A DNA stretch of 64,000 nucleotides from Felis catus (taxonomy: Eukaryota): the NCBI RefSeq assembly GCF_018350175.1, contig NC_058368.1, forward strand, positions 51,771,815 to 51,835,814, read 5' to 3'. The translations under genes were made by a program, and so were the position numbers. Below are positions 1,582 through 51,931 of the stretch, in pieces (the first letter of the stretch is position 1; every line of letters starts with the position of its first letter). The notes beneath the pieces were generated by a model, which was given only the letters and a program-made list of their open reading frames with translations, was not told where the DNA came from and ran no database searches.

Positions 1582-1641
1582 AGATCAAGTTCTTGGCAAT
1601 ATAATCAAAGCTAACTCCAAAATCAACACAAGTATTACAAG
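1582..1641 (+). pseudogene. Degenerate SCEL repeat exon lacking the GT donor: DQVLGNIIKANSKINTSITR
   Basis: ggttaaag|A GAT CAA...ACA AG|ggagcg; exactly 60 nt, open in phase 2, repeat-like. Confidence 0.65.
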
Positions 1642-2069
1642 GGAGCGGTTGTAATGCTTACTGTTGTGTTATTTTTTTGAGTACTCAAATGTGAAAATAG
1701 AATCCTGGAATATTTTTTCTCTGACTCTGGAATTTAAATCTCACATACTTCATTTAGGCAAAAATCAACAAGAGGTAAAAAAAAAAAAACCCACATCAAC
1801 AAGGGGGTGTTCTGGGGTAGAATAGTTGGTTCTTTCAGGTTGTTTCATTTTGCATAAAAAAAGTCCACACATTTTTTTTTTGTTGCTGCTTTTAGCCTGG
1901 GTATATACATTCTCAGATATCTGGATAAAAGTAAAATCTTAAGTCAACATCTAGTTGCTTCAAAATACCTGTATCTGTGATGTTGTATACATGCAACCTC
2001 AGAGACTGTGATACAATCTTAGTAGGGTCACAGAGCATGGAGAAACAGGGTATAAAAGTACCTTCTTTA

Positions 2070-3080: not shown

Positions 3081-3140
3081 GGGCCAGAGCCTTGACAATC
3101 TCATCAACGTGACCCCTGAAGTAAACAGAAGTAATGCAGG
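3081..3140 (+). CDS. SCEL: SCEL repeat exon (60 nt, phase 2-2): [20 protein letters not shown]
   Basis: ttttaaag|G GGC CAG...GCA GG|gtgaag; repeat consensus. Confidence 0.92.
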
Positions 3141-6100
3141 GTGAAGATTATGTCTTATCTTTCTTCCTTCCCTGACTGCATCAATTTGTGGCCCTCATCA
3201 GAGAAGCTATATAGAAAAATCTTTGCATTGGAATCAGCAAGTCTGAAATCCATTACTTCCCAGCTGGGTGCCTTTGAGCAAGTCCCTTGAACACTCTGAG
3301 CTGAGGCTTCTTTAGTCATAAAATGAGGGTCATGTCTGTTCTACCATTGTCACTTGATTGTTGAAGGATCAAATGACATAATGGATATAAAATCCCTTTA
3401 AAGCAAGAAAGCACCAAAAATGGAAATTATTACCAAAATATAGTTAAGTAACAGCTACAGTGTTGGATTAAATACTTGGGAGGTGTGTGAAAGTTTTTGC
3501 AAATCACTATATTGTTCCTGATTGATTTTTTAAAAACTCAATATTGCCCTGATATTATGGTTTTATTTTGAGGGTAAATAAGAATCTGAGCCAGTATATC
3601 GATGATCTATATGGAAGTCAAAATTGTACTTTTTAAAATTAAGGCCATAGACTGGTATTGATTTCTCTTAAAACTTAATAGAAAAATTCATCTTGAGCAT
3701 ATATATCTTTTAAATAAATACTTAGTTGATTTAATTCCATTTTTACTTATCATTTTTTTTTGTTTAAGTTCCAAAGATCTTGATAACCTCATCAAAGTGG
3801 TTCCGAGAACAGGAAAAAGTGTGCAAGGGTAAGTTTTAATATGCTTCTTTTTTTTTTGTTTTTGTTTCACACATATCAATGCTTGAAAAGATAATTAAAT
3901 TAATATTTTAAGAGACTGACACTGAGGTCAATGATAGTTTAAGAATGTGACCTCCCTGAACTCATGTCTGAAATGGTTAACTAGAGAATAGCTGAACTAG
4001 AAGATAAATTTATGGAAAAAGGAGAAGCTGAGAAAAAGAGAGATAAAAAATCCAGGAGTATGAGGGGAAAATTAGAGAACTAAGTGATGCACTAAAGAGA
4101 AATAATCTACATAAAATTGGTATTCCAGAGGAGGAAGAGAGAGGGAAAGGTACTGAAGGTGTACTTGAAGAAATAATAGCTGAGAACTTCCCTGATCTGG
4201 GGAAGGAAAAAGGCATTGAAAGCCAAGAGGCATAGAGAACTCCCTTCAGATGTAACTTGAATTGATCTTCTGCATGACATACCATAGTGAAACTGGCAAA
4301 TACAAGGATAAAGAGAAAATTCTGAAAGCAGCTAGGGATAAACGTGCTCTAACATATAAAGGGAGACTGATAAGACTCGTGACAGATCTCTCTGCTGAAA
4401 CTTGGCAGGCCAGAAAGGAATGGCAGGAAATCTTCAATGTGTTGAACAGAAAAAATATGCAGCCGAGAATCCTTTATCCAGCAAATCTGTCATTTAGAAT
4501 AGAAGGAGAGATAAAGGTCTTCCCAAACAAACAAAAACTGAAGGAATTCATCACCACTAAACCAGCCTTACAACAGATCCTAAGGGGGATTCTGTGAGAC
4601 AAAGTACCAGAGACATCACTACAAGCATGAAACCTACAGACATCACAATGACTCTAAACCCATATCTTTCTATAATAACACTGAATGTAAATGGACTAAA
4701 TGCACCAACCAAAAGACATAGGGTATCAGAATGGATAAATAAAACAAGAGCCATCTATTTGCAAGATGGACTCTACAAGAGACTCATTTTAGACCTGAGG
4801 ACACCTTCAGATTGAAAATGAGGGGATGGAGAACTATTTATCATGCTACTGGAAGTCAAAAGAAAGCTGGAGTAGCCATACCTATATCAGACAAACTAGA
4901 CTTTAAATTAAAGCCTGTAACAAGAGATGAAGGAGGGCATTATATAATAATTACAGGGTCTATCCATCAAGAAGAACTAAATAAATGTCTATGTGCCGAA
5001 TATGGGAGTCCCCAAATATATAAAACAATTACTCACAAACATAAGCAACCTTATTGACAAGAATGTGGTAATTGCAAGGAACTTTAATACACCACTTACA
5101 ACAATGGAAAGATCATCTAGACACATGGTCAATAAGGAAACAAGGGCCCTGAATGATACATTGGATCAGATGGACTTGACAGATATATTTAGAACTCTGC
5201 ATCCCAAAGCAACAGAGGATACTTTCTTCTTGAGTGCACATGGAACATTCTCCAAGATAGATCACATACTGGGTCACAAAACAGCCCTTCATAAGTATAC
5301 AAGAATTGAGATCATACCATGCATACTTTTGGACCACAATGCTATGAAGCTTGAAATCAACCACAGGAAAAAGTCTGGAAAACCTCCAAAAGCATGGAGG
5401 TTAAAAAACACACTACTAAAGAATGAGTGGGTCAACCAGGCAATTAAAGAAGAAATTTAAAAATATATGGAAAGAAATGAAAATGAAAATACAACAATCC
5501 AAATGCTTTGGGATGCAGCAAAGGCAGTCCTGAGAGGAAAATACATTGCAATCCAGGCCTATCGCCAGAAACAAGAAAAATCCCAAATACAAAATCTAAC
5601 AGCACACCTAAAGGAAATTGAAGCAGAGCAGCAAAGACACCCTAAACCCAGCAGAAGAAGAGAAATAATAAAGATCAGAGCAGAAATAAACAATATAGAA
5701 TCTAAAAAAAAACTGTAGAGCAGATCAATGAAACCAAGAGTTGGTTTTTTGAAAAAATAAACAAAATTGATAAACCTCTAGCCAGGCTTCTCAAAAAGAA
5801 AAGGGAGATGACCCAAATAGATAAAATCATGAATGAAAATGGAATTATTACAACCAGTCCCTCAGAAATACAAGCAATGATCAGGGAATACAATGAAAAA
5901 TTATATGCCAAAAAACTGGACAACCTGGAAGAAATGGACAAATTCCCAAACACCCACACACTTCCAAAACTTAAACAGGAGGAAATAGAAAGCTTGAACA
6001 GACCCATAACCAGCAAAGAAATTGAATCAGTTATCAAAAATCTCCCAACAAATAAGAGTCCAGGACCAGATGGCTTCCCTGGGGAATTCTACCAGACACT

Positions 6101-9100
6101 TAAAGCGGAGATAATACCTATCCTTCTCAAGCTATTCCAAAAAATAGAAAGGGAAGGAAAACTTCCAGACTCATTCTATGAAGTCAATATTACTTTGATT
6201 CCTAAACCAGACAGAGACCCAGTAAAAAAAGAGAACTACAGACCAATATCCCTGATGAATATGGATGCAAAAGTTCAACAATATACTAGCAAATCGAATT
6301 CAACAGCATATAAAAAGAATTATTCACCATGATCAAGTGGGATTCATTCCTGGGATGCAGGGCTGGTTCAACATTCGCAAATCAATCAACGTGATACATC
6401 ACATTAATAAAAGAAAAGATAAGAACCATATGATCCTGTCAATCGATGCAGAAAAAGCATTTGACAAAATTCAGCATCGTTTCTTAATAAAAACCCTCGA
6501 GAAAGTCGGGATAGAAGGAACATACTTAACCATCATAAAAGCCATTTATGAAAAGCCCACAGCTAATATCATCCTCAATGGGGAAAAACTGAGAGCTTTC
6601 CCTCTGAGATCAGGAACACAACGGGGATGTCCACTCTCACCGCTGTTGTTTAACATAGTGTTGGAAGTGCTAGCATCAGCAATCAGACAACAAAAGGAAA
6701 TCAAAGGCATCAAAATTGGCAAATTTTGCAAAGCTTTCACTTTTTGCAGATAAATCATATTATATATGGAAAACCCGATAGACTCCACCAAAAGTCTGGT
6801 AGAACTGATACATTAATTCAGTAAAGTCGCAGGATACAAAATCAATGTACAGAAATCAGCTGCATTCTTAGATACTAATAATGAAGCAACAGAAAGACAA
6901 ATAAAGAAACTGATCCCATTCACAATTGCACCAAGAAGCATAAAATACCTAGGAATAAATCTAACCAAAGATGTAAAAGATCTGTATGCTGAAAACTATA
7001 GAAAGCTTATGAAGGAAACTGAAGAAGATATAAAGAAATGGAAAAACATTCCGTGCTCATGGGTTGGAAGAATAAATATTGTTAAAATATCAATACTACC
7101 CAAAGCAATCTACACATTCAATGCAATCCCAATCAAAATTGCACCAGCATTCTTCTTGAAGCTAGAACAAGCAATCCTAAAATTCACATGGAACCACAAA
7201 AGGCCCCGAACAGCCAAAGTAATTTTGAAGAAGACCAAAGCAGGAGGCATCACAATCCCAGACTTTAGCCTCTACTACAAAGCTGTAATCATCAAGACAG
7301 CATGGTATTGGCACAAAAACAGACATATAGACCAATGGAATAGAATAGAAACCCCAGAACTAGACCCACAAAAGTATGGCCAACTCATCTTTGACGAAGC
7401 GGGAAAGAATATCCAATGGAAAAAAGTCTCTTGAACAAATGGTGCTGAGAGAACTGGACAGCAATATGCAGAAGAATGAAACTAGACCACTTTCTTACAC
7501 CATTCGCAAAAATAAACTCAAAATGGATAAAGGACCTGAATGTGAGACAGGAAACCATCAAAACACTAGAGGAGAAAGCAGGAAAAGACCTCTCTGACCT
7601 CAGCCGTAGCAATCTCTTACTCGACACATCCCCAAAGGCAAGGGAATTAAAAGCAAAAATGGACTATTGGGACCTCATGAAGATAAAAAGCTTCTGCACA
7701 GCAAAGGAAACAATCAACAAAACTAAAAGGCAACCAATGGAATGGGAAAAGATATTTTCAAATGACATATTGGACAAAGGGCTAGTATCCAAAATCTATA
7801 GAGAGCTCACCAAACTCCACACCTGAAAAACAAATAATCCAGTGAAGAAATGGGCAGAAAACATGAATAGACACTTCTCTAAAGAAGACATCCAGATGGC
7901 CAACAGACACATGAAAAGATCCTCAACGTTGCTCCTTATCAGGGAAATAGAAATCAAAACCACACTCAGATATCACCTCACGCCAGTCAGAGTGGCCAAA
8001 ATGAACAAATCAGGAGACTATAGATGCTGGCGAGGATGTGGAGAAACGGGAACCCTCTTGCACTGTTGGTGGGAATGCAAACTGGTGCTGCCACTCTGGA
8101 AAACAGTGTGGAGGTTCCTCAAAAAATTAAAAATAGACCTACCCTAAGACCCAGCAATAGCACTGCTAGGAATTTACCCAAGGGATACAGGAGAACTGAT
8201 GCATAGGGGCACTTGTAACCCAATGTTTATCACTCTCAACAATAGCCAAATTGTGGAAAAAGCCTAAATGTCCATCAACTGATGAATGGATAAAGAAATT
8301 GTGGTTTATATACACAATGGAGTACTATGTGGCAATGAGAAAGAATGAAATATGGCCCTTTGTAGCAACGTGGATGGAACTGGAGGGTGTGATGCTAAGT
8401 GAAATAAGCCATACAGAGACAGACAGATACCATATGTTTTCACTCTTATATGGATCCTGAGAAACTTAACAGAAACCCATGGGGGAGGGGAAGGAAAAAA
8501 AAATGAGGTTAGAGTGGGAGAGAGCCAAACCATGAGAGACTCTTAAAAACTGAAAACAAACTGAGGGTTGATGGGGGGGGAGGGTGGGAGGGAGGGTAGG
8601 GTAGGTGATGGGCATTGAAGAGGGCATCTTTTGGGATGAGCACTGGGTGTTGTATGGAAACCAATTTTACAATAAATTTCATATATTAAAAAAAATAATA
8701 AAATGGTTAACTAAGTTTTAATATAATGGAGGTAACTTTGATTAGTTAGATGCACAGTTGATTTCCAAGAATGGACATGACACTTAATTGTTTTGTTCTT
8801 TTTCTTTTCTTTTTTTTAAAGTTTATTTATTTTGAGAGAGAGAACATGTGTGTGTGGACATGAGTGGGGGAGGGGCAGAGAGAGAGGGAAAGAGAGCGTT
8901 CTAAGCAGGCTCCAAGCTGCCAGCACAGAGCCTGATGTGGGGCTCAATCTCACGACCCACTGTGAGATCATGAACTGAGCCGAAATCAAGAGTTGGATGC
9001 TTAACTGACTTAGCTACCCAGGCGTCCCAATTTGTATATTTTTCTTAAGCAGAGGATGGCATAGAAGAGGTGAAAGAGAACTAAATGGGAGACTATAGAT

Positions 9101-12100
9101 TTGGATCTAGGTCTGGCTCTGCCCTCACTAACCGTGTGAAATGTAGTTGGTCACTTCTATTTGGGCTGCAGTGTTCTTGTCCTCACAATAAGGAAATTGG
9201 ACCAGGTGCTGTCTCGTCACTCCAATGCTAATTCAATTACTAAGTTCCAGTACAATGGTTGGTATCATGGAATCACGGTATCATGGAAAGTTGGTATCAT
9301 GGAATCTAACTCTTGAGTTAGATTACTTCACTTTCACTTAATCTTTCTGTGTCTGTGTCTCAGTTTTTCCCTTTGTGAATATGGGATGATAATACTTCCT
9401 ATATTGGATGATTGATTAAATTATATAAATCTTGTGAATCACTTGAACAGTGCCTGGCATATCATGAATTTTCTAAAACCATTGATTATTTTTTATTACT
9501 TCTATGCAGCTGTAGTTATGTCCAAATATATATATTCGTAGGACTGAAAATTCCAATCCTTTGAGATGAACTCTATATTTATAAATATTTTACAATAAAA
9601 TATTTTTACAATATAAAATGGTTCTCAGTTTTAACAAATATTTGCAACCACATGATATAAATCAACCACTGATCTGATCACTTCTTCCATGTTTAAAGGG
9701 GCCACAGTCTTGACAGTCTCATCAAAGTGGCTCCCGAAACAAACAGAACTAACCAAAGGTGAGGTTCGTGGAACTCTTCTGTACCTCTGTGTTTTTCTGT
9801 TTAACTTAAAAAAATGTAATAAAACTCATTGTCCCACCATGGAGACAGCCAGTGATGGGACCAAAAATCAACAGCTGTGTTAGAAACCTGGTGTTCAGGT
9901 CCTTGCTCAGGGCTCCCAGGCCGTGAGCTTTAATGGAGGATAGAGAATTTCTTATAATGTCTCTTATCAGTATGCAATTGTGCTTGGGATTTCAACATAA
10001 TTCTATTTCAGTATAATAGTTCCACATAATACGTTGCAATCATTTACATGAAAGGGCCTGTGTGTGATTAAATTAGTTTATGAGTTAACTGGAAAGATTA
10101 ATTAAATGATACAAACATTTCTGGCCTTTTTTTCTCTTCAGGGTATATAGCATATTGTACAATAATAAGGTATACCACATTAACCTTCTTGTTTAGGCTT
10201 TTGGTGTTAATGTTGGTATGAAAGCCCATTGTTATAATAATGTGTCTTTAGAGCTATGATTATTCATTTGAGTGTTTAGAATAAAAGCAATTTATGTAAT
10301 CTGAAGTCTTGCTTGTTCTGATTTAGCACTACATGAAGTGCAATTCTGAAGTGATTTAATTAATATCTTAGAGTAGCTTCAATGTTACAGATTCATGTTA
10401 TATATATTACCTGCATACCTTAAATCAGGAAGTAACTGTTTTTTAAAAGTCCTAGGTTATGTTGTTTTGCTTGCTTGCTTTTGTTTTTGTTGTTTTTGGA
10501 GGGGATGGAAATGGGGAACACATGGAAATGATAAATCTTATATGTTTATATTTTTCTTTTGTTTGTTACAACCTCCCAAAACATCCTAAATGCTAATTCT
10601 GCTACAAAATATAATGTGGAAAGTGAAAAGCTCAAGAGTAATTTAAATTTGGGGTTGTCTTGAAAGAAACAAGAATAAAACTAAATTCTCATATGTACAT
10701 AATTGTGTAAGAAATGAATTCACAGCCACCTGCTTTTACATAGGGCTAAAAAGAATTCAAGTAATGATGAAGTTTTAAGTTGGCAACAATTATTTAATTT
10801 AATATTCAAGTTGAAAAAAATGTACACATTATTATTGATTTTAGTTGATTTTACCACCTATTGCAACTTGCAACATTTTTTTAGGATCCAAACTCATTCC
10901 CTCAGCATACACAAGGTAGGTTTTACCAAGATTACTGAGACTTTTGAGCAAGTCTCCAATTTCTGCCAAAAAATAAGATTAATCATTTGGCTAAAGGCAT
11001 TCTGAAAGAGGACATGAAAAAAAATGAGAACAAATTGATTTATTGATATGTAGTGGTGTTGGATTTTTTCATTGTTTCAATTTACTTTACTATGGTATTG
11101 AAGCAAATTCTTTATAATTACCATTTGAGAAATTCATTTTGACACAATAATAGCATAACTAGATCATTACTGTAAATTCATAGTAAATTAATTGTAAATT
11201 CATAAAGCCGGATAAAACAAAGAATATTGGCTTTCTACTCTTTCACAAACCCAAAGATTGATCTCTAAATGACTCGAGAAAGTTGGTGGCATGCATAACA
11301 TTCCTATACTATTCTTATTCTTATACTAGAATATTTTTGGATGACATTGAATATATTTCTGTCTTCTTGGGGAGTTAAGACTCATCGTATATGGGGTCAA
11401 AAGTCAAGAAATGCATACCAGAATAAGTCCAAGCTCCCTCTCAGGATTACTGCGATGACATTGGTGAAGAGCATGGTGGAGATGTAAGCAGTTACTGTGG
11501 ACAGAGAGAAAGGATGATAGTGGGAAGGAGCGTGAGGTTTGGGGTCCAGTTGCTATGGTTTCAAACCTGGTTCATTCTTAATCACTTCTTCCTACCTGCC
11601 CCCAAAGAGTGCCCTACCTTCCAGGAAGCTCGGTTTCTTTATTTGTAAAGGGAAGATGGTGATATCTACCTCAGTGGGTTGTTTTGAGGATTTTAAAAAC
11701 TTTGGGAAGTAGAAACTCAGTACACTTGTTACTTTTATCTAGGATCCCATTGTATGATTTACATGTGTCAAAAGAAAAAAATGTCAGTCATAAAATTTGC
11801 TGGTTTCCAGCTGAATTTGACCTTTTATTTTATTTTGTTTTAGCAGTAAAGCAAGTCTTGATGAACTTATTAATGTAGGCCCCAAAGCTGTCAAAAACAT
11901 GGCCGGGTAAGAGAAAGATGTTAATTTGTTTTGTTTTATTGTGTTTTGTTTTTCCTCTTAAAACACAATACAAATGTAAATAATTTGTAGTCATTCTGTG
12001 GGCAAACTGAATATAGGTCTTGAAAAACCATCATGATTTTGATATATTCCTGGAAATAAATATCTATTTGTTCCTAGCAAGAAAGAGAGGTAACTGAAGA

Positions 12101-15100
12101 AAATAATATGCTGGTGTCTTTACTTCTTTCCACCTCAAGTGAAGCAGTTGAAGAGACCGATTGTGAGAACATAGCTGGTCTATGTGCTAATTTGTTGTTT
12201 TTTCCTTTATGATATTGATGTTAACACCTTTGTCTCTCGAACTGATGACAATTTGTTAATAATAGTTAATTCCTAAAAACACCTAGAACACTTTATTAGA
12301 TGTAGTAGCAGCATTACCTTTACTTCATTTCATAGAGCATTTTCTGGTAGTCGGTGGAAATTTTAGGAGGTTTATTGTTTCTTAGATGGTCTGATGCTCC
12401 CAGCAAAGTTGTGGACATAAAATTTGGTGTTTCTTTAGGCAGTGTCTGTAAGATAATAAATTCGCTTTTTGTCTCTGGGTACATGAAGATTTTTAAACTC
12501 TTGCACACTATATACATATATTGATTTCCCTTTTTGAGTTTAGTTGGTACATATAAAAACTGCAAAATTTTAGAGATCAAGGAAGGAATCCCAGAGAACT
12601 CCCAGCCCTGTTAGTCTGAACAATTTTGAAAACCCCTGTTTCAGTCAAACCTATTCAATTTCCAGAAGAGGAAACAGACAAAGGTTAAGTGATCTGACCA
12701 GGGTCACGGAGAAAACTAGTGGAAGACTGATAGTTTTGTGATCTGTTAGGGAATGAATAATTATGAGGAACCTATTGGGTTTGAAGCTTACAACTAGGTA
12801 TCATTAGTTGCACATTAGGTATAATTATAGGCCATGGATGCCAAAAAGAGAATTCAGTAGACATACTCAGTCTTATTAACAGCAGGCAATTATCATAGAT
12901 TAAAGCTAATTATGTACTGGAGGGCACAGAGATGTTACTCCAAGAGAAGAATAGGTTGTCAATTTAATATATTACATTTTGGAACACTAATGTACTGCTT
13001 GCTGAATATAGAATGCATTGTCAGTACATTGCATTTAAAAGGGAAAAGAAGCACTGAATAGCTAATTTAATAAACATGACAGGCAGTCAAGCCCATATCC
13101 ATAGTTTCCTAGGAGTAGAAGACGTTGGAGATGGGCAGAGTCTTAGAGATGTTCCAGTCTCCTCATTTTACAGATGAGAATACTGAGGCCAGGAGCAAAA
13201 ATCTCATAGTCTCCGTGAGTTCTTCTAACTCCCAGCCCAACTCCTGGGGCTCCCAGCACACCAACTTTGATCTTAAAAGAAATGAAAGTTAATTAAACAC
13301 CTCCAGAAATAGTGGAGGTTTATAAAGCTAGGATTGTTGCTCTTGCCATGGGACAGCCAGAAGGTGTCCTTTACTGCTCTACAGGGTCACTTGAAATATT
13401 ATTTCATAGGTGACAATGGCACAAATGTGCAAATGGCTGCAAAACACTTTGCAGCTCTTAAACTACATGGAGTCAGTGATAGATAAATATTCTAACATAT
13501 CCCTTTACTATATCCTTAAAGCAAAACAAATGAAAGCAGAAACTTGTTACAGAAAGAATGTTACATTTTTCCTGGATAAAGTTTAGATATAAGATTTCTG
13601 CATTTTCAGGGACCCAAGGCCTGAAAAGGGGGTCTATAAATTTGTTATTTTCAAGTCATTGAGATAAATTGTGTGATGCTATCAATCAAGGCAATTCAGA
13701 ACTGATACTGAGATCCTCGTTTTGTTAAAACACTGTTGTCTTTTCAGTAGTGGTAGAACATAGCATACAATTATATATTTTCTAAGCCAAGATTTCTCAA
13801 ACTATGGGTCAAAACCCACCAACGGGTCTTGTAATTAATACAGCAAGTAGCAATCAGCACTTTCCCTCAATTAAATAAAATTAATTAAATAGAGTGGAAA
13901 ACATGAGAGTTATTATGTAGTAAGGGTATTATTTAATGAAATTTGTGTTTGCTCATGTGTGTGTGTGTGAGTGTGCATATCTCTATCTGAAGAGAGTATT
14001 GAGTTGTGATGTAAACCTTATTTCTTTTTTTTAAGTTTATTTATTTATTTTGAGAGAGAGAGCACAAATGCCTGCAAGTGTGAGCAGGTAAGGGGCAGAG
14101 AGAGTAGGAGAGAGAGACTCTCAAGCAGGCTCTGTGCTAATAGCAGGGGCTCAATCTCACGAACCTTGAGATCATGACCTGAGCCAAAATCAAGAGTTGG
14201 ATGCTTAACTGACTGAGTCACCCAGGCGCCCCTAAAATGTATTTCTTAATGCGCTTTATGAAACAGTAATTTGAATATCACTTTCCCAGGTTGTTGCATA
14301 AATGACATTTTCTGTGCTCATCAGAAGAGTGAAAATGGAAGTTCCCATGGTTGTGTGTGCAGTTTAATCATGTTGGCACATGAATGTTGTATGTAGTTAC
14401 ACTAGAAAATATTATGGCCTTTGAACACATTATCTTCTCTACAAAGTCTTATTCTTTGTATTTTTTATTCTAATCTATGAAATTAACCTCACTTTATTTT
14501 ATTTAAAAAATTTTTTAATTCCTGTACAGTTAACATACAGTGTTACAATAGTTTAAGGTGTAAAATAATCTCACTTTAGAGATCATTGTCTTTTAGGCAC
14601 AGTTGAGCTTTATACTAAATCTTGCAATCAATTTATACAAGGAAATTATATTTTGGATAGCTCTTATAGGATAATCCTTCCTTTAATAGTATTTGTAGAA
14701 ACCAATTGGTTATCGTTAATTGCGAATACTATTCCTGAAGATAACTCAAAACAGTGAAAATTCAGTTAGCAGCTTTCTGTCTACCGTGGCAATCTGAGAA
14801 CAATGATGGAAGCCAGGGGCTGGGAAACACATTCAATGGAAATATTAGGTTTGGGGGAGGGAAATGCAGACTTTTTCTCAGAACTTTTCAGTGATGAAGT
14901 TCTAAATGGCGCCCCTTCAGCTCTCAACATTGTTTTAATATTTTTGACAAGTAAAATGTCTCTTATTTTTATATAAGGAGAAAGGACTGTTTGGAGGGAA
15001 GGGTAGACAGGCAAGTTGCTGTCCAAGATGGTACTGAAAGCAGGCATTCTCAGTCCTGTGATTTCTATTTTTTTTAATGTTTATTTATTTTTGAGAGAGA

Positions 15101-18100
15101 GAGAGAACACACACGCTCACGAGTGGGGGAGGGGCAGACAGAGAGGGAGACAGAGAATCTCAAGCAGGCTGTGTCCACTGTCAGCGCTGAGCCTGACATG
15201 GAGTTCGAACCCGCAGACTGTGAAATCATGACCCGAGCTGAAATGAAAAGTTGGACGCTTAACTGACTGAGTCATCCAGGCACCCCAGTCCTATGATTTC
15301 TTGCCATTACAGGCTGACACATTTCTCTGAATAAATATTAAAAAGGGGTTTACAGGAACAACTGAAAAATCACCACCTGCCAGCCCTTAAAACAAGGTAT
15401 GACACGAAGGCAGTGAATGGCAGCAAACTATGTGGGAAGAAATACGGTTCTTGACTGAGGAAACAAACTGGTGTGGCTTCAGATAGGAAGCAGACAGTCT
15501 TCAGAGCATGTAACTAATTTGACCATGAACAGCTGAGTTCATTTCAGCTTTTTAGTCATTGTAAAAGAAAGAAATGTCATGGTTTTGAAGGATTGCTAGA
15601 ATGCTCCTTGCCAAGTCTTATGCTAAGTATAATCCCAATTTTGGAGCTTATTTTAAAAAATATCCTCAGTTGGTGAATATGATTTAAAAACTAACAAGGA
15701 CAAGGGCATTAAAATCAGCTTGTATCTTCATAACGTTAAAACACTGCAGAGTGGAAAGTTGTTAATCCCAGATGTTTGCTGTGAACACCAGCCAGCTGTG
15801 CTCTGGCTATGAAGTATGTAAAGTCAGAGCAACTTCTCTTCAAATCCAGCATAGACTGTCCCCCCAAATTAGCTAGAAAACTTATTTCAAGGCTGTTCTA
15901 TGCCAAACCAGTATGTCTCATGCTAAATGATAAGACGGCTAATCCTTTCTTCTAATTCCAACCAACTTGAACCCGCATTACCTCTAACCCAAGCTGCTTT
16001 AATTTTTTTTTTTTCACTTAAAGAAATCGAGATCTTGATAAGCTCATCAGAGTGAGTCCTGAAACTCTCACCAACAACCGAAGGTAATAGAACTATATTA
16101 ATTTTTGTGCTTTGGGCAGGAAGAATATTTTGGTTTATTATTATTTCAAGCAGATTTATAACCTTAATGCTCCTGCCAAAAGAACTTTACCATTAACCTT
16201 CTCTCCTTTTATTTTTCTATTTAAAGAAACCAGGATCTGGATAACCTCATCAAAGTGAGTCCTGCAGTGACCAGAAGCAGTCAGAGGTAATCAAATAAAA
16301 TAGTCATTTCATGTTTTCATCTGTCTGTTGCCCCTGGGTGCAGTGGATTTATAATGTGGCTTTATTGACCCAGCACAACCAAAACCTATCACTAATCTGA
16401 ATTTATTTATTTTTTTCTCTTTTGAACAGTGAAGGCTTGGACAGTCTCATTAAAGTGAAATCTTCAGGTCTCAAAAACACTGAGCGGTAAATGACTTTGC
16501 CTATCTTGAGGTGTTCTCAAGGTTCTAGTTAGGAATTGTGTTTCTTTCTCTCTCTCTCTTAAAGAAGCCTTTTATTGGGGTGCCTGGGTGGCTCAGTTGG
16601 TTAAGCATCTGACTTCAGCTCAGGCCATGATCTCACAGATGGTGAGTTCGAGCCCCATGTCAGGCTCTGTGCTGACAGCTCAGAACCTGGACCCTGCTTC
16701 CGATTCTGTGTCTCCCTCTCTCTCTGCCCCTCCCCTGCTTGCTCTCTGTCTCTCTCTCCCTCTTAAAAATAAATAAACATAAAATTTTTTTTTAAAAAGA
16801 AGCCTTTTATTTTTCTTTAGTGTTCAAATGAAGACACAGTTCTAAGTCATGTGTCTCCTGTCAGCAAGGAAACATCTTGCACTCCTCTGGAATCGCACTA
16901 TTTGGGACTCGGTTCTGTACTTTTTACTTATTTACAGGAGTGCAACTTTGTTTGTTGTCTACAGCATGTTAGGACTGAAATGAAAACTGAATGCAATCAA
17001 ATCAGAAGAAAACGTATTTCCAAGAAACTGAACCAAACTGGTGGCTTATATAGATGACTATAGAGCATCAGAAAGGATATTCAGGGTCCTCAAATTACAG
17101 ATCCACAGTTTGTGTGGACTCACAGAATATTACAGCAGATTTTTAACCTTGAACTTCCATTTTGAGTTCTGCAAATATAGTATAATTTAGTATCTTTATG
17201 TGATATCTACATCTTTCACCTCAAGGGGCTTATTAATAGACAATAAGGTAATAATAGATAATGCACCCAAGTGCCTAATATTAGAAATTCAAATTGTCCT
17301 GCTGACCTGAAATGTTATCATTATAAACATAAATCTTGGAACCATAGTGTCAATATTCTAAGATGAGGAAAGCAAGTTAACATACGGAAACGTGCTTTGA
17401 ACCCACTGGGGGAAAGAAGGCAGTGTAGTACATTCATGGCTCAACTCTTGCGTCTCCTAGTTTGTTGTCTATGTTACTATGTGATTTTGCTATTTCTGCT
17501 TATATGGTTTTATTACTGGGGTGATGGGGTGTTTGGAGGAGGGAGGCACTGGAAGAGCCACCGTCACTGAGAGAAGTAGCACTTACTGAGTCCCTTTCAT
17601 GTGACTGGCAATTTACATACATTCAATCCTTACAATGAGAAACATATTCATGAGAAATATATTCATATAGCCTACTTTATAGAAGAGGGGAGTATAGCTC
17701 AAAGACATTAAATGACCTTCTGAAGAAAGAAAACATATCCTGGGTCTAAACTCAAGTCCTTCTGATGCCACTGCCTAGAAGAAAAACAGACTCCCATCTT
17801 CTTTCCATCCTTTATACTCACCACAGTCCCTTCCCTTCTAAATCCCCCTTCCTGCAGCGAAAGAAGTACAATTACATACGCTTATTCTAGCAAATTATCA
17901 CTTAAGTGACAGGGAAGAGAGAAAGTACTTACCTCATAGAGGTTTCCTACTAGCTGAAATAATAGCAGATTTTGGTGTCAACCCTGCCACTGATGATTGT
18001 ATGGAAATATCTCTGTTAAGTAGAAGCATTTCTTCACAGTGGTTTTGGTTGGGATGGAATTTTCTTTTTATTAGTAATAGTATTAAGATTGTTAGGAGGT

Positions 18101-24200: not shown

Positions 24201-27200
24201 ACACAAAGTTAGTACTCATTAAATGTTAACTGAATGAGACTATAAATAATTGTTTATTTACAGACCAGATTTCTCAAAACTTCCAAAAGATTAGTTCTTT
24301 CTTTCTCACACATAATCTATGCTTTCATATTTGAGTTATAGATCAAATAGCTCAATGTCTGATTTCCAATGTTCTATATAATATATATATTTATTTATAC
24401 ATATTTATAGTATACATAATAATTATGTGGGTTTTTTTCACCTATAGCGACCAAGACCTGAAAAATTTAATTGAAGTAAATTCTAATGTCTCTGAAAATA
24501 AAAATGGAAGGTAAGACTTATTATAATTTACTTTTTTTGTTATCAATTTCATATGAGCCTACACAAATTATATAACATTAGAATATTTACTGAGGAGTTG
24601 AATTGTATTATGGTATTTAGATATAAATACGATTGAAATACAAAAATCAATATTCAGAGTACTTAATAGATAATATGGAAAAAAGTTAACAAAGTTCAAA
24701 TTCTGTTGGAATTTCTGACTAAGGGCCTTCTATTCAATTGCTTAGTGTAAAAGGCATCATGGAAATTCAAAGCTCTGCACTTGGCTGTGAAAATTTATTT
24801 TTACTTATTGTTGCTTGGTAGTTTTTCAGTGGTGCAGAAAGCACTCTGGGAATGTCTTCCTTGGATACCTAGTGCTAAAAGAATGCGCAAATTCATCACA
24901 GCTACAAAACAAGACCTAGTTTTGGAATTTCTTTACACTGCACAGTATAATGGCATTAAAACTGTTGTATTTTGTTTCTTATACAAGGAAAGTTGGGATA
25001 GAAGCTCTACTTCATTGTTGTTACAGACTGTTTAGGGAAGAATTAAATTGTTTTCCGTGTTTTGCAGTCTCCCTAGACCTATGGGGGACTCTAAAAACAA
25101 TGGGTTCCTATTTCTTACCTTCATAAGGTACAGTTGTCTTTTCTATTAAAAATTTTGTTATGCAAAGAAATGATACTGTCAATGTTGTGTGTGGAGAGTG
25201 GAAAAGCAGAAAGAGATCTGGGTCCCCAAAATGTCTACAAAAGACTCTTGCATCTAATGTTAGTTTCTTTCCCTTCCATTAATTCCCTAAATCATCTTAT
25301 GCCTTCTTTTCTTGTGATCACACAAAACGTTTTGATAAAACTAGGGAGGGTAAGTTTTCAATAGAATCTGTTTATCTTAGAAAAACATCCATTATTTTGG
25401 AAGCAGGACTGGGCTTACAGTTAGCCAGTCTCACTCAAGTATTATCTGGAAATGATTAAGGTAAAAAATTGCAAGTAAATGTTTATGTATGGTTAAGGAA
25501 CTTCTCATTTTAATATGATTTGACACATGCTCCAATTTCAGCGTGACTTGCTTACGAAGGATTAATGAAGAAATGGAATATTACGGAAATTTAAGAGCAG
25601 GAATGGTAGCATGGGCGGACCTCATAGAGGCCTGATCTGGAAGGTTATTTCTTCTTGGCCAGAGGACATTCCATAAGGAATCCTTGGACATTAACCCTAG
25701 TTCTTTGTTATTACTATAACTTAGCTACTTCCTGAATATTGGCCACTTCCTATTTTTGTCTTGCTTTTCCTTCTGCGTATTGGCTTCCTTATTCTTTACC
25801 CTATATCTATTTGATAACCAAGAATCTTTGCTGCTTTGCAGTTTCTACCTCCTCATACCTTGAGCTTATTCGTGGTAAGCTTTTTCATGGCCTGTCTGGC
25901 CTTCTAAAGCAAGGCATTATGGATGTGGCCATCTGCACTGAAGATGGTGTATAGATGGAAAACACCATGGTTGACAATAAGATACACATATTCTCCTTTC
26001 CTTTCCTGCAGTTTTGTCTGTGTCTCCTGCCTGACATAATCCAACTGTGACATACATTCACAAATGTACCCACTCTCTCCCAGTGAGACAGGAATCATCA
26101 CATTCAGTTACTATATCAAGAAGCCTTAACTACCACCACTACAAAACCATTTCTTGATCCCTGACTTCTGTTTCCAGGTAGTGTTCATTCTCCTTCAGTT
26201 CGATCACAATCCTGAATATGTACAATGTTTCATGGTCTGCTCTCTAGAAATGAAATGGAAAATGTAAGCACCACCCTGGCACTGACACAAGAACTGTAAT
26301 AAATGGAACAGAATGGCAAAAAGAAATCTCTGGGCCCAATTTTTGTGCCCATGTATTCTGGCTACAAAAAAGGACTTTCAAAATGGGTAAATGGGTAAAT
26401 ATTTAATAGGAAGAAAATTAAGAAAATTCACAGAGAGTAAGAGACTTGACTAAGTGTAGAAGTTTAGTAATTAGAGGGCTGGGGTGAACCTGATTGTTAT
26501 GGCATCAGGTCCTCTCTTTATTTTTTATAGTAGACTACTTTTTAAAACCATGTTTAAAATTTATAGTTTTTTACAAGAGCTCAAGACCTTGACATTTTAT
26601 ATACAACACATAGGATACAAAATAGTAAGCTCTTAATAAGATTTTATTCTTTATGCAAAAGAGATTTATAAAATTTGCAGTGGTATCGATGTTTATCAGT
26701 TGAAGTTGTTTTATGGTGTTCAAATCTTAGGTTGCTAATGTTAAGTTAGTAAGACAATGGAAATCTAAATAAGAGTCCTGGGCCAATCTGCTAAACTGAT
26801 ACTTGATTCACTTTATGAATGTATTCACTTTGTATAGTAATTGGATGTCCAAGTAAATATATTTTTATAATTAGCATATTCATAGAGTGTACAACCATCA
26901 CCACAATCAATTTTAGAACATATGTATCACCTCAGAAATCAACTCCGTACCCATGAACAGTCACACATCATTTTCCTCCCAACCCCTCATCCCTAGCCTA
27001 CTTTCTGTTTCGATGAATTGCCTATTCTGAACATTTCATATAAATGGACTCATATAATATGTGGTCCTTTATGACTGGCTTCTTTCAAGATTCATCCATT
27101 TAATAGCATGTATCAGTACTTTATTTCTTTTTATTGCCAAATAGTATTTGTCCATTGTATAGCTAAACAGCATTTTGTTTATTCATTAATTGATGGACAT

Positions 27201-30200
27201 TTGAATTGTCTTTGAATTTTAGATTGTATTTAACTATTGTAAACAATGCTGCATATATGTTTTTGTGTGGGATATGTTTTCATTTTCTTGGGTGTATACT
27301 TAGGAGTGGAATGGTTGGATTGTATAGTAACTCTATGTTTAACCATCTAAGGAACCACCAAACTATTTTCAAATCAGCTGTACCATTTTATACTCTCACT
27401 AGCAATGTATGAAGGTTCCAGACAGGTGAATTTTCAAGCTGAATTTCCACCACAGGAAACATTTTCTCAAGAGTAATCCCATTTGAAATTCTGTAAGATC
27501 CGACACAGTGTTTGAATTTATATTTTGTAGAGTTGTTATTTAATTAATTAAGACACGAAACTATGACCATTAATTGGAAGTTATAATTCAACAATTTGTT
27601 TCAATGAATAATAACTTTTAATGATAAAACTGTTAATTAACAAACATTGTGAGTCATGAGTTCTCCTTTATGAGGATTATTCAAGGCATCTGAGAGCAAT
27701 ACTTGGGCAGGGTTCCTCAATTGTACTGGTTCCCAAACTTTAGTGTATGTCACAACCACCTGCTGATAGAGAGACCACATTTTGAGAACCAGTACTCTTC
27801 TGGGTAAGATGATGGGCTGCCCAGCCTCTTAGGTGGTGGTTCTCAACCTTAACTTGCATGTGAGACTCAGTGAAAAGGCTTAAAAGAATCCCAGTGCCCA
27901 AGCTGTAGTCCAAACTAATTAAATCAGAATATCTGGATGTGGGGCCCAGTAGCATTGTAAAAAGTACCACAGGTTATTTCACTGGTTGCCAAAGTATTTT
28001 TTAACTATTTCTATGGTTCTAAATAATTAAAAAAAAATATATTGTTACCACTTATTGGCATCAAGATAGAATTTCCTTTTTAACATCTATCACCATCTCT
28101 GGAAGAACAAAGAAAGACTTGGCAAGTATTACAGAGCCTAGGAGACTAAAGAGACATGATTATTATGTGGAAGATATATCCTGATTCTGATTCTGGAACT
28201 GAGAAAGGACATCAGTGGAAAAACTGATGAAATACAAATGAAGTGTGTAGATTAGTAAATAGTATTGTACCACGTTGATTCTTTAGTTTTGACAAATATA
28301 CCATGGTTATATATGATATTAGTATTAGGAGAAGCTAGGTGAAGGGTAGACAGATTCTCCACCTGTCTTTGTAATTTTCCCATACACTTAAAATTATTCC
28401 AAAATAAAAGGTCTTTTTTAAAAAAATCTGTCATCTTCCAAACCTACTGGCATAGCAAAACCTGTCAAAAAGTTTATTGTTCCACATTTCAAATTTGCTT
28501 ACTAGCATTTAGTTTTCATTCATAATTATAAAAATTAAATCTTAGTGAAGCCATTATCATCATCTTATGATAAATACAGCTAGGAGATGCTACTTGTATT
28601 ATTACTCTGTCTGGGCTTCCATAACAAAAGACCACAGACCAGGTGGCTTAAACAACAAAAATTTATTTTCTCACAATTCTGGAGGCTAGAAGTCCAAGAT
28701 CAAGACCACAGACCAGGTGGCTTAAACAACAAAAATTTATTTTCTCACAGTTCTGGAGGCTAGAAGTCCAAGATCAAGATGTTGTCAGGTTTGGCTTCTC
28801 CTGAGACATTTCTCCTTGGCTTACAGATGGCCACTTTCACACTGTGGCCTCGCATGGCCTTTTCTCTGTGTATGAACAAACATACACAAATCTCTGGTGT
28901 CACTTTTTCTTATAAGGACACAAGTCCTGTGATATTAAAGCTTCACCCTTATGACCTCGCTTAACCTTTTTTACCTTCTTATAGTCTCTGTCTCCAAATC
29001 ACAATGAAGGTTAGAATTTCAAAATGGGAATTTGGGGGGGAAACAATTCAGTCCATTATAGTACTGTATGCAGTTTATTCCCCTTTCTTCTTTGAAGATT
29101 TTGCTAACTAACTGGTGATATTTGATTTTATATTGCTGGGGATGGTGCAAACACATTCCAAACTCACTGACAACCTTCATTCCTTGAAGCTGTCTGTTAA
29201 AAATGGGTTTTTTATTGTATGTTATATGATTTGAATATTTTTAAGCAATTCCTAGCTAGGTTTATTATTCCTGGAATGACATATTCTAATAATTACATTA
29301 GAAAGGTTTCTAATGTTCATTCTACTTTCTCATTACTTAGTATAATTTTAATGTAGCTGTATGGATTGTGAAACATCTGTCTTAAAAGTAGAAGATGATT
29401 GTATGCCAGAGATAATATGTGAACAATGTTTTCCTCTTCTTTAAGAGCTATCTGGAAATGGAAGGAAAGTATGTTTAAAAATGATAAGGCTTGATTAAGA
29501 TCTAATCTGCCCTCTTGTTTTTCACATCTCTTCTATATTGGAGTTTACTAACCTGGAGGGATGAAAAGTGGCTAAAATTTTTGCTATTCCTGCATTAAAA
29601 TTTTCCTCTGTTTCAGAGGAAAAAGAAAATATGCCTGCACTTGTTAAACGTTGTGACACTTTTAATTAGCAGAAATCTAAGTCAGAGTTCTGTAATCTTC
29701 AAAATATTTTTTTCCATTAAAAACAAGATGGAAACGAATTTCCAAAAAGCAACCGCTGGGTAATTTTCATTAAATTGATAAACTCACAAGTTTATCATAT
29801 TGTACATGAGATGCTTTCTACAGTGGCACTGCTGGTATTACAAGGTTACTGGAACCAATTTCAGATGGTTTTTGCCCTGGATAAAAAGGTCTTTTATTCT
29901 AATGTTAGATAATATGACACATGCCTGTAGATTATTCTTTAAGGTAAGACAGTGGTCACTCTGGAGGTGTAAAATAGTACATGTATTCTATCTGTGTATC
30001 TGCACAGAAGCCAGAAGACAAACATAAAGAGGTTTGTTGTATGTAAAAACTTAATTGCATAGAATTTTAATAAAACAAAAAAACTTCTAGTGGCCTTCAT
30101 TTAAGTGCCAAATATTTGTGTCTGCTTTCCCAGGCTAGACAGCCAAGTCGGTGGATCCACTGATGCTATAAACATCCAGTTTACTAGAACTCCTGCCCAT

Positions 30201-30981
30201 TCTTATGAAGCCAGGAAGAATCACAGGTACCACGGCCAATTATATACAAGTGACAGGACTTTCTCCTTCTGTTTTTAAAACTCATCTTCCTTTAAACCTC
30301 CCCTTGCTTTGAAATGCAGAAATTTCTAATTTTATCAGTAGCTTTATGTAAACAGCTCCACACAAAGGTGTTGCATTAGCAACTTGGTCGTTGGTAAGCT
30401 TTGATATCTGGGTAGGAAAGTGTAAATATTATTTGTTCCTGAAAATTTTACATTAAAAAAAACTGTGACACTGGTGTTGACATTCTTTAGGCAGATTTTA
30501 AAGTTTCATTAAATTAGTTGTTATCATGTTCATTAAAGTTCATTAAAGTCAACTTTTTATTTTGCTTTTCAGATTTTTATTTAAATTCTAGTTAGTTAAC
30601 ATTCAATGCAATATTGGTTTCAGTAGATTTCACTGATTCATCACTTACATACAACTCCCAGTGCTCATCACAAGTGCCCTCCTTAATACCCATCACTCAT
30701 CTAGCCCATCCCTCCACCCACCTCCCTCCATACAACCCTCAGTTTGTACTCCATTGTTAAGAGTCTCTTAAGGTTTTTTCCCTCTCTCTCTCTTTTTCCC
30801 CTTTCCCATATGTTCATCTGTTTTGTTTCTTAAATTCCACATATGAATGAAACCATGTGGTATTTGTCTTTCTCTCACTTATTTTTCTTAGCATAATACA
30901 CTCAAGCTTCATCCATGTCGTTGCAAAGGTCAAGATTTCATTCTTTTTATGGTTGAGTAATATTCCATTATGTATATGTGT

Positions 30982-31019
<38 letters not shown>

Positions 31020-34000
31020 TTTTCCATAGTTTGGCTATTGTTGATAATGCTGCTGTAAACATTCAGGTGCACGTACCTGTGCTTGAATGTGTATTTTTGT
31101 AACCTTTGTGTAAATACATAGTAGTGCAATTACTGGATCGTATGGTAGTTCTATTTTTAACTTTTTGAGGAGCCTCCATACTGTTTTACAGACTGGCTGC
31201 ATCAGTTTGCATCCAGTTTGCATTCCCACCAACAGTGCAAGAGGGTTCCCCTTTCTCCGCACCCTTGCCAACACCTCTTGTTTCTTATGTTGTTAATTTT
31301 AGCCATTCTCACAAATGTAGGCTTAGAGACCTCAGCAACTCCTTAAAATGTAATAACATTAGTATCATAGGAGTCCCAGAAGATGAAGAAAGAGGAAAGG
31401 GGGCAGAAGGTTTAGTTGAGCAAATTATAGCTGAAAACTTCCTCAATCTGGGGAAGGGCACAGACATCAAAATCCAAAAAGCACAGAGACCTCCCATTAG
31501 ATTCAACAAAAGTCAGCCACCACCAAGATACATCATCGTCAAATTCACAAAATACACAGACAAGGAAAGAATCCTGAAAACAGCAAGGAAAAAATCCTTA
31601 ACCTACTAGAGAAGACAGATCAGGTTTGCAGCAAATCTGTCCACAGAAATTTGGCAGACCAGAAGTGAATGACATGATATATTCAGTGTCCTAATATATG
31701 GGAAAAATATGCAGCTAAGGTCAACTTTTTGAGGTTTGTGGGGAAAGTTATGGTTTGAAAAATAGGAATGGGACACCAGGGAAACACATTAAAATGTATT
31801 ATAAATATTCAAAATAGTCTTCATGCTCTACAACAGATATTCTGAGCGACCAATTTCCATAGCAGCGTTCTGGAAGTAGGCCAAAACAGTGGACACCAGG
31901 AACAAAATAGGAGATGTGAAGAAATTTTGCAGAAGTGGATTAGTATCCCTTTAACAATTACATTTCAAAAGTTATAATTTAAAAGGAATATATAAACACT
32001 ATTTTTTGCATTGAATTGGATAATAGCCTTGCTGTTTTTATTATCCTTGTAAATAAGCTTTAAACATTAAGTAAATGGTTCATGTTACAGCTCCAATGCT
32101 GAAACCAGGCATGCAGGACCAAAGGATACTGTGGTATACACAAGGACCTATGTGGAGAACAGGTACTGGAAATTTATTTAAAATATTTTGCTGCATTTAC
32201 TCTAATTTTGAAATCATCTATGTTAGGAGAGATGCTATTATTTTGGAGTATGTTTGCTTTTCTCAAACAGAAGACCATTTAGGGGTATATTGAGTTCTAG
32301 GTATATCATTCTTTATAATGTTTCCAATGTTAAGTAGTTGGCAAATAACCATTGTCATTGGATGAACCAAATGCTTGAATATAACAAGTATACACATAAT
32401 AGGATAACCATGTGAAAGTTCTCACATGATCATATATAACTATACATTTATAACAAGCGTACAAAATTACACAATGCAAAATTACACAAAGTTACTCAGA
32501 TACTCTCATGCTAATTTTGAGTCACACTTTAATTAAATAGTTCTATACACTATTCTATCTAATCTAATCTATCTGTCTGTTTACCTCTCATCTGAAATAA
32601 GGGGTGTTACCTTTAGTAGATACACTCTGGCCCAAATTACAGAGAATGGATATCCAAAAAAATCTGCTGCTTGGAGTGATGGATGTTGAGAAGAATGTCA
32701 ACCAAGATGATGAATTCACAACCTATTTGATTTTCAGGGAGTATAAAAATAAGAATTAGCCTACCTGTGGAGTAATATACTGGTTAGGACTACAAATGTG
32801 ATGTACGTGACATATGTGTTAACCAGAGCCCATTTCAAAGAGGGGAGTCTATCTCTAGAGAGGGGTTCCTGAAAGGGCTCTGGGAAATTCAATACATGTC
32901 AGAAAATGGACAGTTTTCCAAAAAAACAAAAAAGGTTTCTCAAAACCACACCTAATTTACTTTGTAAAATGCAGGCTCAAGTTTGATTTTTCTGCTGAAT
33001 CTAAATCTCCCTAAACTCCACACTGACGATGTAGGATAGTGTAGAGGCCCTAGCATCAGATTTGGGATGGAGTCTGTCATTTACTAACCAAGTGGTTTTG
33101 GCAAAATCTACTTAACTTCTTCGAGTCTCAATTTCCTTATCAAGAAAATGGAAGTAATAATATATGTATCACGCACAAATGTGTGCAAACTCTTACTGAG
33201 CATTGTGGGTTATGTATTCCGAAGATACTCTATTTCTTTTCTTTTTTATATTCTTTTTTTAAAGTAAATATAATTTATTGTCAAATTGGTTTCCATACAA
33301 CACCCAGTGCTCTTTCTGACAATAGTCTGCCTGTGGACAATTGGAGGGAGAAAGATTTCTTATTTAAAAATCCCAGGTAAAGTCTGTGGAATTACCACTC
33401 ACCCTATGAAATAATAGGAATGTATTGCTTCCAGCCCTAATATACTCACAGGTAGCATAAGTAGTTGGGAAGCAATTATGAGCTGCCAGCTGGTTAGTGC
33501 ATTGCAAGTTTCATTTGTCTCACAGAAGGACTGACATTTACAAACTGGGGCAGTCTGAAAAATAGAACAAAGGGGACTTAAAATTACACTTTTTTGCTTT
33601 CATTCTAGACTATTCTTTCTTAGATGTTTTCAAGTAAAAATAAACATTTCTACAGCTTTCTCTAAAAGTTTAAGAGTCTCTGTGTCTCTACACAGAGAAT
33701 GTTGATGTTGTGAATGTTGATGTTTCTATGTGCTTACACTGGCCCATGCTTTGCATAGTTCCTTTTCTGTGTTAGATTACATGTGGCTTTCCTATAGCAA
33801 ATGAATGAGGGAGGGGCAAGTATGCATGTCATGAGAAATGATAACTTCTTTTCCTGCTCACGCTTTTTCCTGCGCTCCTTGTCCTATGCTCTATTTCCTT
33901 CAATAGATTTGTCAATTTATATCAACCTGGAGGTGGCTTGTGCATCAGCACTTTCCACATTTAAAAAAAAAAAAAAAGAAAGAGGTTAGTACATGGTCCT

Positions 34001-41995: not shown

Positions 41996-42975
41996 TTCTG
42001 GCACATGGAAATCAAGATAAAAGCATTTATCAGGATGTTAAAATTTTATTTTAAGAATATGTAATCTAGAAAAGTTTTCACACTGAAGATTGACTCTTGT
42101 ATACAACTAACAATTCTGCTATTGCATAAATAATCTGATTGCCTTCCATAAAGTCATATACATAAAGGAAACCATCTAATATCTGGCTAGATTTAGCCAT
42201 GAAAAATTCAAGTGGTTCCAGTTACCAATGTCAAAGGAATGATGCTTCTCATGGCAACGAGCTCTGTCAACACTAACTAGGTCCGTCTCTGCTCCGTATG
42301 TGAGCTGTGCATCGTGGTGACCATAGTAGACAAGTTTCCCTTTTTGTCATCTTTGTTTCCCTACAGACTTGAATTTACAGATATTATTGACATCCTGATG
42401 AACTGTCAAAAAAGCAAGATATGCATGTATATCTTTCACATGCAAAAGAAATGTTGATAGAATTGTTTTTTTAAACAAAGTTTGGCGGAAAGGTGTTTCA
42501 TATAAAGCTGTATGGACCTCAGAGAATCACTTGATCTTTCCAGACAAAATTATTTCTAATGTCCCTTTCTGCTCCTCAGATTATCTGATTCTAAAACACG
42601 TGTTGCTTGCTCTTTGAAAGTATATTTGAATATGTGTCTGTTAAGTATATTGAACTAAATAGGGTATCTAAACAATTTAATGTTATCCTTCAATTTACCA
42701 CAGAAATGATTTTTATAGAATATTTTAAAAACAAAAAACGTGGATTTGTGGGTAATGGGTAAAATCTCATGACATGTATAGTTTACATATTATACCTTGT
42801 TAAATTTTCTTTGCATGCATTTCAAAATCTGGGTATATGAATAATTTCTAAAAATAATGGTTATAGACTTCAGAGACATGCTCTTTGGCATATCACATCT
42901 ACTCATATTACATAGCCCTTTACAATTACAGACAGCTTATAAATAAAAATAAAATGAACTACCAGTTACACAGGA
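41996..42975 (+). other. SCEL: Putative SCEL 3' UTR (end approximate)
   Basis: AT-rich stretch without recognisable repeats between the stop codon and the tandem AATAAA. Confidence 0.6.
42942..42953 (+). terminator. Tandem polyadenylation signals AATAAA-AATAAA
   Basis: AATAAA at 42942-42947 and 42948-42953, about 950 nt after the stop. Confidence 0.6.
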
Positions 42976-51700: not shown

Positions 51701-51931
51701 GTTGGAAGAATAAATATTGTCAAAATGTCAATACTACCCAAAGCTATCTACACATTCAATCAACCCCAATCAAAATTGCACCAGCATTCTTCTCGAAGCT
51801 AGAACAAGCAATCCTAAAATTTGCATGGCACCATAAAGACCCCGAATAACCAAAGTAATTTTGAAGAAGATGACCAGAGTGGGAGGCATCACAATCCCAG
51901 ACTTTAGCCTCTACTACAAAGCTGTAATCAT
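48749..51931 (-). mobile_element. LINE-1 with 5' inversion (twin priming): 3' part on - strand (48749-~50252), inverted ORF2 segment on + strand (~50251-51931)
   Basis: (TTTTA)n tail at left; ORF2 C-terminus on - (49067..49795); RT region on + (50534-51802, FADD intact); TSD TCATAGG(G/A)ATTTTAT at 48734-48748 and 51928-51942. Confidence 0.96.

Follow-up and report, generated by a model that had tools for sequence, protein, structure and literature searches.

A 31-nt segment in an intron of a felid sciellin (SCEL) gene is supported as the remnant of a 51-nt repeat exon that stands at the same position in other mammalian lineages. It was found in a 64-kb window, by which we mean the whole stretch of DNA that was analyzed, and it sits between repeat exons 9699-9758 and 11844/11847-11906. 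The lesion disables coding: the segment has 31 nt in place of 51, inclusion shifts the frame into a stop, and the L-D-x-L-I core is gone. We think it likely that this is a decayed pseudoexon that is skipped, that stray inclusion is removed by nonsense-mediated decay (NMD), and that the whole is an ordinary exon death in a repeat gene. If this plain reading is right, the locus is a small, clean case of a modular repeat protein losing a unit, in which a frameshifting deletion in an in-phase cassette exon led to default skipping and left a splice-competent fossil.

The sciellin gene and its surroundings

The 3' two-thirds of SCEL lie on the + strand of the window. Its identity was established with the stop-to-stop open reading frame at 38260-38538 around a LIM-like exon, for which 368 of 376 candidates (E <= 0.001) were sciellin matches, with felids at the top of the best 120 of the 368 matches that were listed. 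The exon chain in Table 1 was obtained by mapping the window against felid sciellin models; when joined, these exons encode an intact C-terminal sciellin in which up to 307 of 311 residues equal those of felid models. Two residues, R in place of Q within the second LIM exon and A in place of T at the end of exon 11844, place the sequence with the small-cat models and not with those of Panthera and Neofelis. Human sciellin is described as 16 inexact 20-residue repeats followed by a LIM domain (PMC5041940). The eight repeat exons mapped in the window are 57 to 63 nt long, every length is a multiple of 3, and all have phase 1 at both ends. A stretch of the sciellin 3' untranslated region (UTR) was present in 20 of the 24 sequencing runs listed, one of those 20 being recorded as RNA.

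Table 1. Positions of sciellin features in the 64-kb window
Feature	Position	Strand	Details
Repeat exon	3081-3140	+	60 nt; felid-model mapping
Repeat exon	3769-3828	+	60 nt; felid-model mapping
Upstream flanking repeat exon	9699-9758	+	60 nt; phase 1-1; encodes a peptide of 19 letters
Acceptor region of the putative remnant	10853-10884	+	UUUAC, T7 tract, AG at 10883-10884
Putative remnant, 31 nt, of the sciellin repeat exon of 51 nt; frameshifting pseudoexon	10885-10915	+	Sequence, three frames, register match
Donor GTAGGT (AAG/GTAGGT) of the putative remnant	10916-10921	+	7/9 consensus matches; 5.93 bits; U1 duplex -10.3 kcal/mol
Downstream flanking repeat exon	11844 or 11847-11906	+	63/60 nt; tandem TAG/CAG acceptor
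Repeat exon	16024-16083	+	60 nt; felid-model mapping
Repeat exon	16227-16286	+	60 nt; felid-model mapping
Repeat exon	16430-16486	+	57 nt; felid-model mapping
Repeat exon	24448-24510	+	63 nt; felid-model mapping
Exons after the repeats, intact	30134-30226, 32091-32162, 34132-34206	+	Felid-model mapping
Two LIM-domain exons, intact	38346-38454, 40431-40533	+	Felid-model mapping
Last exon and 3' UTR	41979-42965	+	End of coding sequence; stop at 41993-41995
AATAAA poly(A) signals	42942, 42948	+	Sole basis for the inferred 3' end at 42965

Several further observations concern the gene and its surroundings. The second LIM exon reads K-R-P-L here and K-Q-P-L in the Panthera, Neofelis, and meerkat models; the R form is also found in the models of Lynx, Leopardus, Herpailurus, Prionailurus, and Felis. 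At the tandem acceptor TAG/CAG (11842-11849), felid models use both 11844 and 11847, giving the junction residues 'SS' or 'S', and dog and fox models alternate likewise. A sciellin-repeat-like segment lies at 1582-1647 (+), in the intron upstream of exon 3081, where the DNA profile of the paralogous exons matched 1571-1642 with an E value of 1.7e-5. It forms a 66-nt open frame behind an AG and has a weak GTTGTA donor, its motif occurs in none of 28 felid models, and this too may be a repeat exon that is unused or in decay. Adjoining opposite-strand copies of an interspersed repeat of about 3 kb, at 5620-7292 and 7286-8703, are 91 to 94% identical to 48830-51931, which is a single copy downstream of the sciellin gene; our guess is that this repeat is probably a LINE. 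SINE-like repeats of about 220 bp occur at 8800-9050, 14020-14250, and 15060-15290.

Splice signals and reading frame of the segment

About 32 nt upstream of the segment lies a UUUAC that resembles a branch point, judged by eye against the yUnAy branch-point consensus, and no AG intervenes. On crude splice scores, based on a position-weight table and a U1 motif, the donor ranks 6th of 14 exons in bits and among the strongest three of 14 in predicted U1 duplex energy; the acceptor, with a pyrimidine fraction of 0.65 and a longest pyrimidine run of 7, falls at the low end of the real exons. Because these signals match those of several real exons in quality, appreciable inclusion of the segment is conceivable. 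Applying the segment's own crude values as thresholds to the 42 kb of the gene that lie in the window returned eight AG...GT pairs, made up of three real exons, the segment itself, and four unannotated decoys. The existence of four decoys as good as the segment means that good-looking signals by themselves do not predict use.

When the segment is spliced after exon 9699-9758 (slices were joined by script), the frame shifts and a TAA is met at 11847-11849, at the start of the next exon: acceptor 11844 gives CAG TAA, and acceptor 11847 gives TAA at once. When it is skipped, the frame is kept with either acceptor. Under the general rule for NMD, a premature stop lying more than about 50 to 55 nt upstream of the last exon junction marks a transcript for decay. 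Since the TAA here has ten exon junctions downstream of it, NMD is predicted for mRNA that includes the segment. Other AG/GT pairs within 10860-10960 yielded no in-frame form that uses the segment's own sequence, and the alternative acceptors 11852 and 11856 of the next exon, followed by hand, gave no frame rescue. A donor after 9763 was also considered as a rescue and was ruled out by hand, as the product reads through TGA. In its other frame the segment reads SKLIPSAYT. Compared with a functional repeat exon (57 to 63 nt, here 51 nt, phase 1-1), it has 31 nt and lacks the L-D-x-L-I-x-V core.

These results agree with much of a preliminary description of this DNA, which had reported a 31-nt segment with a good acceptor and an AAG/GTAGGT donor and had noted that the other repeat exons are 57 to 63 nt long and multiples of 3; the first point is read directly from the sequence, and the second holds for the eight exons mapped through felid models. 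Its derivation of CAG TAA or TAA upon inclusion after exon 9699 was reproduced with the joined slices, the NMD that it had named as one outcome of inclusion is also what the ten downstream junctions predict, and felid-model mapping bore out its view that the downstream exons and LIM domain are intact.

Orthologous exons and the age of the lesion

Between the orthologues of exons 9699 and 11844, many placental protein models carry a 17-residue repeat plus split codons, which amounts to 51 nt, and in many placental orders this exon encodes a peptide of 18 letters. It is present in primate models (orang-utan, capuchin, owl monkey, and slow loris), in rodents (marmot and squirrel) and hare, in xenarthrans (anteater and armadillo) and afrotherians (elephants and manatee), in moles, horse, rhinos, and horseshoe and fruit bats, and in cetartiodactyls (pig, peccary, alpaca, hippo, whales, and ruminants). 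A regular-expression pull of the exon returned 34 proteins, from primates, hare, xenarthrans, afrotherians, bats, horse and rhinos, and cetartiodactyls, with 20 distinct 17-residue versions, all of which imply 51 nt. The preliminary description had proposed that the segment is a 51-nt exon with an internal deletion of about 20 nt, and the full exon in so many placental orders upholds a net loss of 20 nt. The peptide that it had given for human equals the version in orang-utan model P0150; the rows listed include no human protein.

Homology of the segment to this exon draws on several comparisons. Its second frame, K-L-I-P-S-A-Y-T, aligns with the end of the 51-nt exon, K-V-I-P-S-A-N-K, with the donor in the identical codon register, and the first bases after its acceptor read x-Q where the full exon starts N-Q. 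In a MAFFT alignment with eight paralogous exons, it falls on their second half. The best ungapped peptide score in the intron belongs to the segment, yet 72 of 300 shuffles matched that score; the DNA profile of the eight paralogous exons did not report the segment at E values up to 100, and a profile of 20 orthologous peptides gave it an E value of 4.7, with five non-exon open reading frames equal or better. Among 2000 shuffles of the intron, 37 produced a match to KVIPSANK over 8 codons with a score of 22 or more, and 0 produced such a match with GT in the exact register. Outside the gene, at 60911-60936 (+), a chance 8-codon match to the end of the lost exon also has a GT in register, and for this reason the register test should be taken with caution. 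The similarity by itself is therefore not significant, and the proposed homology would rest on position together with the exact register of the splice sites. To explain the segment, one deletion of 20 nt and four substitutions would suffice, with the boundaries and the date of the deletion read from proteins.

The same comparisons bear on the possibility that the segment is a decoy, its likeness to the lost exon being no more than chance in an intronic AG...GT pair, the true remnant being gone or elsewhere in the intron. A similarity that is not significant taken singly, the comparable in-register match at 60911, and the four further decoy pairs in the gene are what such a decoy would lead one to expect. 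Against it stand the segment's rank as the best peptide match within the correct intron, the donor in the exact codon register of the end of the orthologous exon, the x-Q after the acceptor, and a meerkat version that keeps the ancestral N of P-S-A-N and is nearer to the ancestral peptide. We regard a chance decoy as rather unlikely.

Models from other carnivores bear on both the use and the age of the remnant. All of the listed NCBI felid models that carry both flanking exons (13 of 13, from six species) join the flanks directly, without the remnant, which agrees with the earlier suggestion that the gene survives by skipping; protein models would not list NMD-targeted isoforms, and default skipping is to this extent a statement about annotation. 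All three Ensembl lion models and all three from meerkat take two residues of the remnant from one frame and the following seven from another, with the same frame switch as in the remnant of the window. A two-frame reading of this kind is a typical patch by which gene builders accommodate a 1-nt frame problem. Users of these annotations should be aware that the remnant is patched into the protein in the models of lion and meerkat from Ensembl and is skipped in those from NCBI. The meerkat reading retains the N noted above, and its junction residue implies, from protein only, a T at donor position -1 (G to T), which would weaken the donor.

Because the lion and meerkat models share the frame-switching remnant, the lesion would predate the split between cats and mongooses, and protein comparisons suggest that the exon loss is at least as old as the felid-herpestid ancestor. 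The term 'lineage-specific' used in the preliminary description does not survive these models, nor does it fit the listed caniform and pangolin models, in which no such exon is found; a 'lineage-specific poison exon' is unlikely. In the remnant, the cat-type reading departs from that of meerkat at 3 of 11 residues, as compared with 2 of 41 for the pair of flanking exons (Fisher p = 0.057), and the other repeat exons are 75 to 100% identical to the meerkat model. On these sequences, the divergence of the remnant would be neither proof of neutrality nor a hint of constraint.

Ninety rows were scored as 'skip'. They include the 13 NCBI felid models, one NCBI meerkat model, and all caniform rows (dog, foxes, raccoon dog, bears, panda, mustelids, and sea lion), as well as both pangolins, three phyllostomid bats, and most pig isoforms. 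Among these rows, no listed caniform or pangolin model has any residues at the position of the 51-nt exon, and in the transcript-length contig proteins P0048, P0049, P0056, P0057, P0063, and P0064, which are also among the 90, the flanking repeats are identical to those of dog models. Six rows scored as 'full' are isoforms without exon 9699 and so were mislabelled, and 33 rows with weak flanks were dropped from the skip/full count and read from the model listings instead. Outside Carnivora, the exon is missing from the phyllostomid models P0081, P0100, and P0152, although horseshoe and fruit bats keep it, and from the pangolin models P0091 and P0099; these absences suggest repeated independent loss or skipping of one repeat. 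In the Ensembl tiger models (3 of 3), the remnant is replaced by a 29-nt piece at 9845-9873 (Q-P-V-M-G-P-K-I-N), just past exon 9699 and spliced to an AG inside the next exon (11852). In the window this piece is followed by GC, not GT, and it is probably a gene-build artefact.

Taken together as a history, the decayed-exon reading would run as follows. The ancestor would have had a 51-nt cassette exon in the sciellin repeat array, of phase 1 at its start and end like its neighbors. A net loss of 20 nt would have taken the part encoding the D-L-D-N-L-I core, leaving 7 nt from the start of the exon and 24 nt from its end, which make up the frame-shifting 31 nt of today. As all repeat exons share a common phase, omitting the remnant would cost only one 17-residue repeat and keep the LIM domain, and in mature mRNA position 9758 would by default be joined straight to 11844 or 11847. 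The usable acceptor and strong donor would persist for want of mutation so far and not by selection. Transcripts that contain the remnant, with a TAA far upstream of the last junction, would be lost to NMD as splicing noise. Searches of the sciellin/SCEL literature on repeats, exons, the LIM domain, the cornified envelope, and Carnivora yielded no paper on this exon; one apparent SCEL match (10.1101/482315) was a surname, not the gene.

Poison exon, truncated protein, and known systems

The preliminary description had seen in the segment a candidate poison exon, and a functional, regulated one would mean that feliforms keep the splice-competent remnant as a means of reducing SCEL output, by NMD of the transcripts that include it, in certain tissues or states. 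The sequence is compatible with this idea, since the acceptor has a T7 tract and an AG-free zone, the donor is strong, and ten junctions lie downstream of the premature stop, and the frame-switching remnant is still recognizable in lion and meerkat. However, the differences between cat-type and meerkat readings are 3 of 11 in the remnant as against 2 of 41 in the flanking exons, the meerkat donor appears, from its protein, to be weakened at -1, and four unannotated decoys of equal crude quality lie within the same 42 kb. A search among shorter proteins gave no truncated felid product (1 match in 51 candidates at E <= 0.001, from camel). Known conserved poison exons are far better conserved, according to two reports (PMC11357089 and PMC13228269), and unproductive splicing is a pervasive by-product that, according to a third, accounts for 15% of the transcript molecules of human protein-coding genes (PMC11387194). 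No felid transcript-contig proteins were present among the cluster representatives. We therefore hold a regulated poison exon to be unlikely, and its fuller form, in which a poison exon born of exon decay has had its sites kept for tens of millions of years in feliforms and regulated inclusion tunes epithelial SCEL dosage, to be distinctly so. A remnant in such use would matter more than a fossil, as a poison exon that a structural gene had acquired through exon decay, with SCEL dosage tuned through NMD in stratified epithelia.

Were the remnant included and NMD escaped, the product would be a truncated sciellin without its last repeats and LIM domain, possibly with a function of its own. The frame is indeed open until the TAA after inclusion, but the stop is a long way upstream of the final junction and the single match among shorter relatives was the camel protein, and we judge this very unlikely. 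An assembly or sequencing error hiding an exon that is in reality full length or in frame is extremely improbable: the lion models come from an independent genome and call for the same frame switch within these residues, so that the lesion did not originate with this assembly, and the NCBI models of all six felid species avoid the segment.

Among known systems, the segment comes nearest to the pseudoexons that exon death leaves behind in modular repeat genes. As in other exon deaths, a disabling frameshift has struck a formerly coding cassette exon whose neighbors are in phase, so that skipping is harmless, and the remnant is recognizable at the syntenic position; unlike many dead exons, which lose a splice site first, the sciellin remnant has two sites that look competent. 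Poison exons of the alternative-splicing-NMD type, such as the ultraconserved ones of SR proteins, resemble it as cassettes that, once included, place a premature stop far ahead of the last exon junction. Poison exons are defined by observed, regulated inclusion and by conservation, none of which was seen for the remnant in the models compared. They also differ in that sciellin is a structural protein of the cornified envelope and not a splicing factor with an autoregulatory loop, and in that its remnant arose by decay of a coding exon, not as a dedicated noncoding exon. Another known system resembles sciellin in that small exons each carry one repeat, with numerous predicted isoforms differing by whole repeats, whereas the sciellin repeat has been lost from coding capacity across a whole clade and is not optionally skipped. 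In tropoelastin (ELN), some exons have been lost or are never spliced in some primates. Like sciellin, tropoelastin is a repetitive structural protein of small in-phase exons, some of them lost or silent according to lineage, but it belongs to another gene family.
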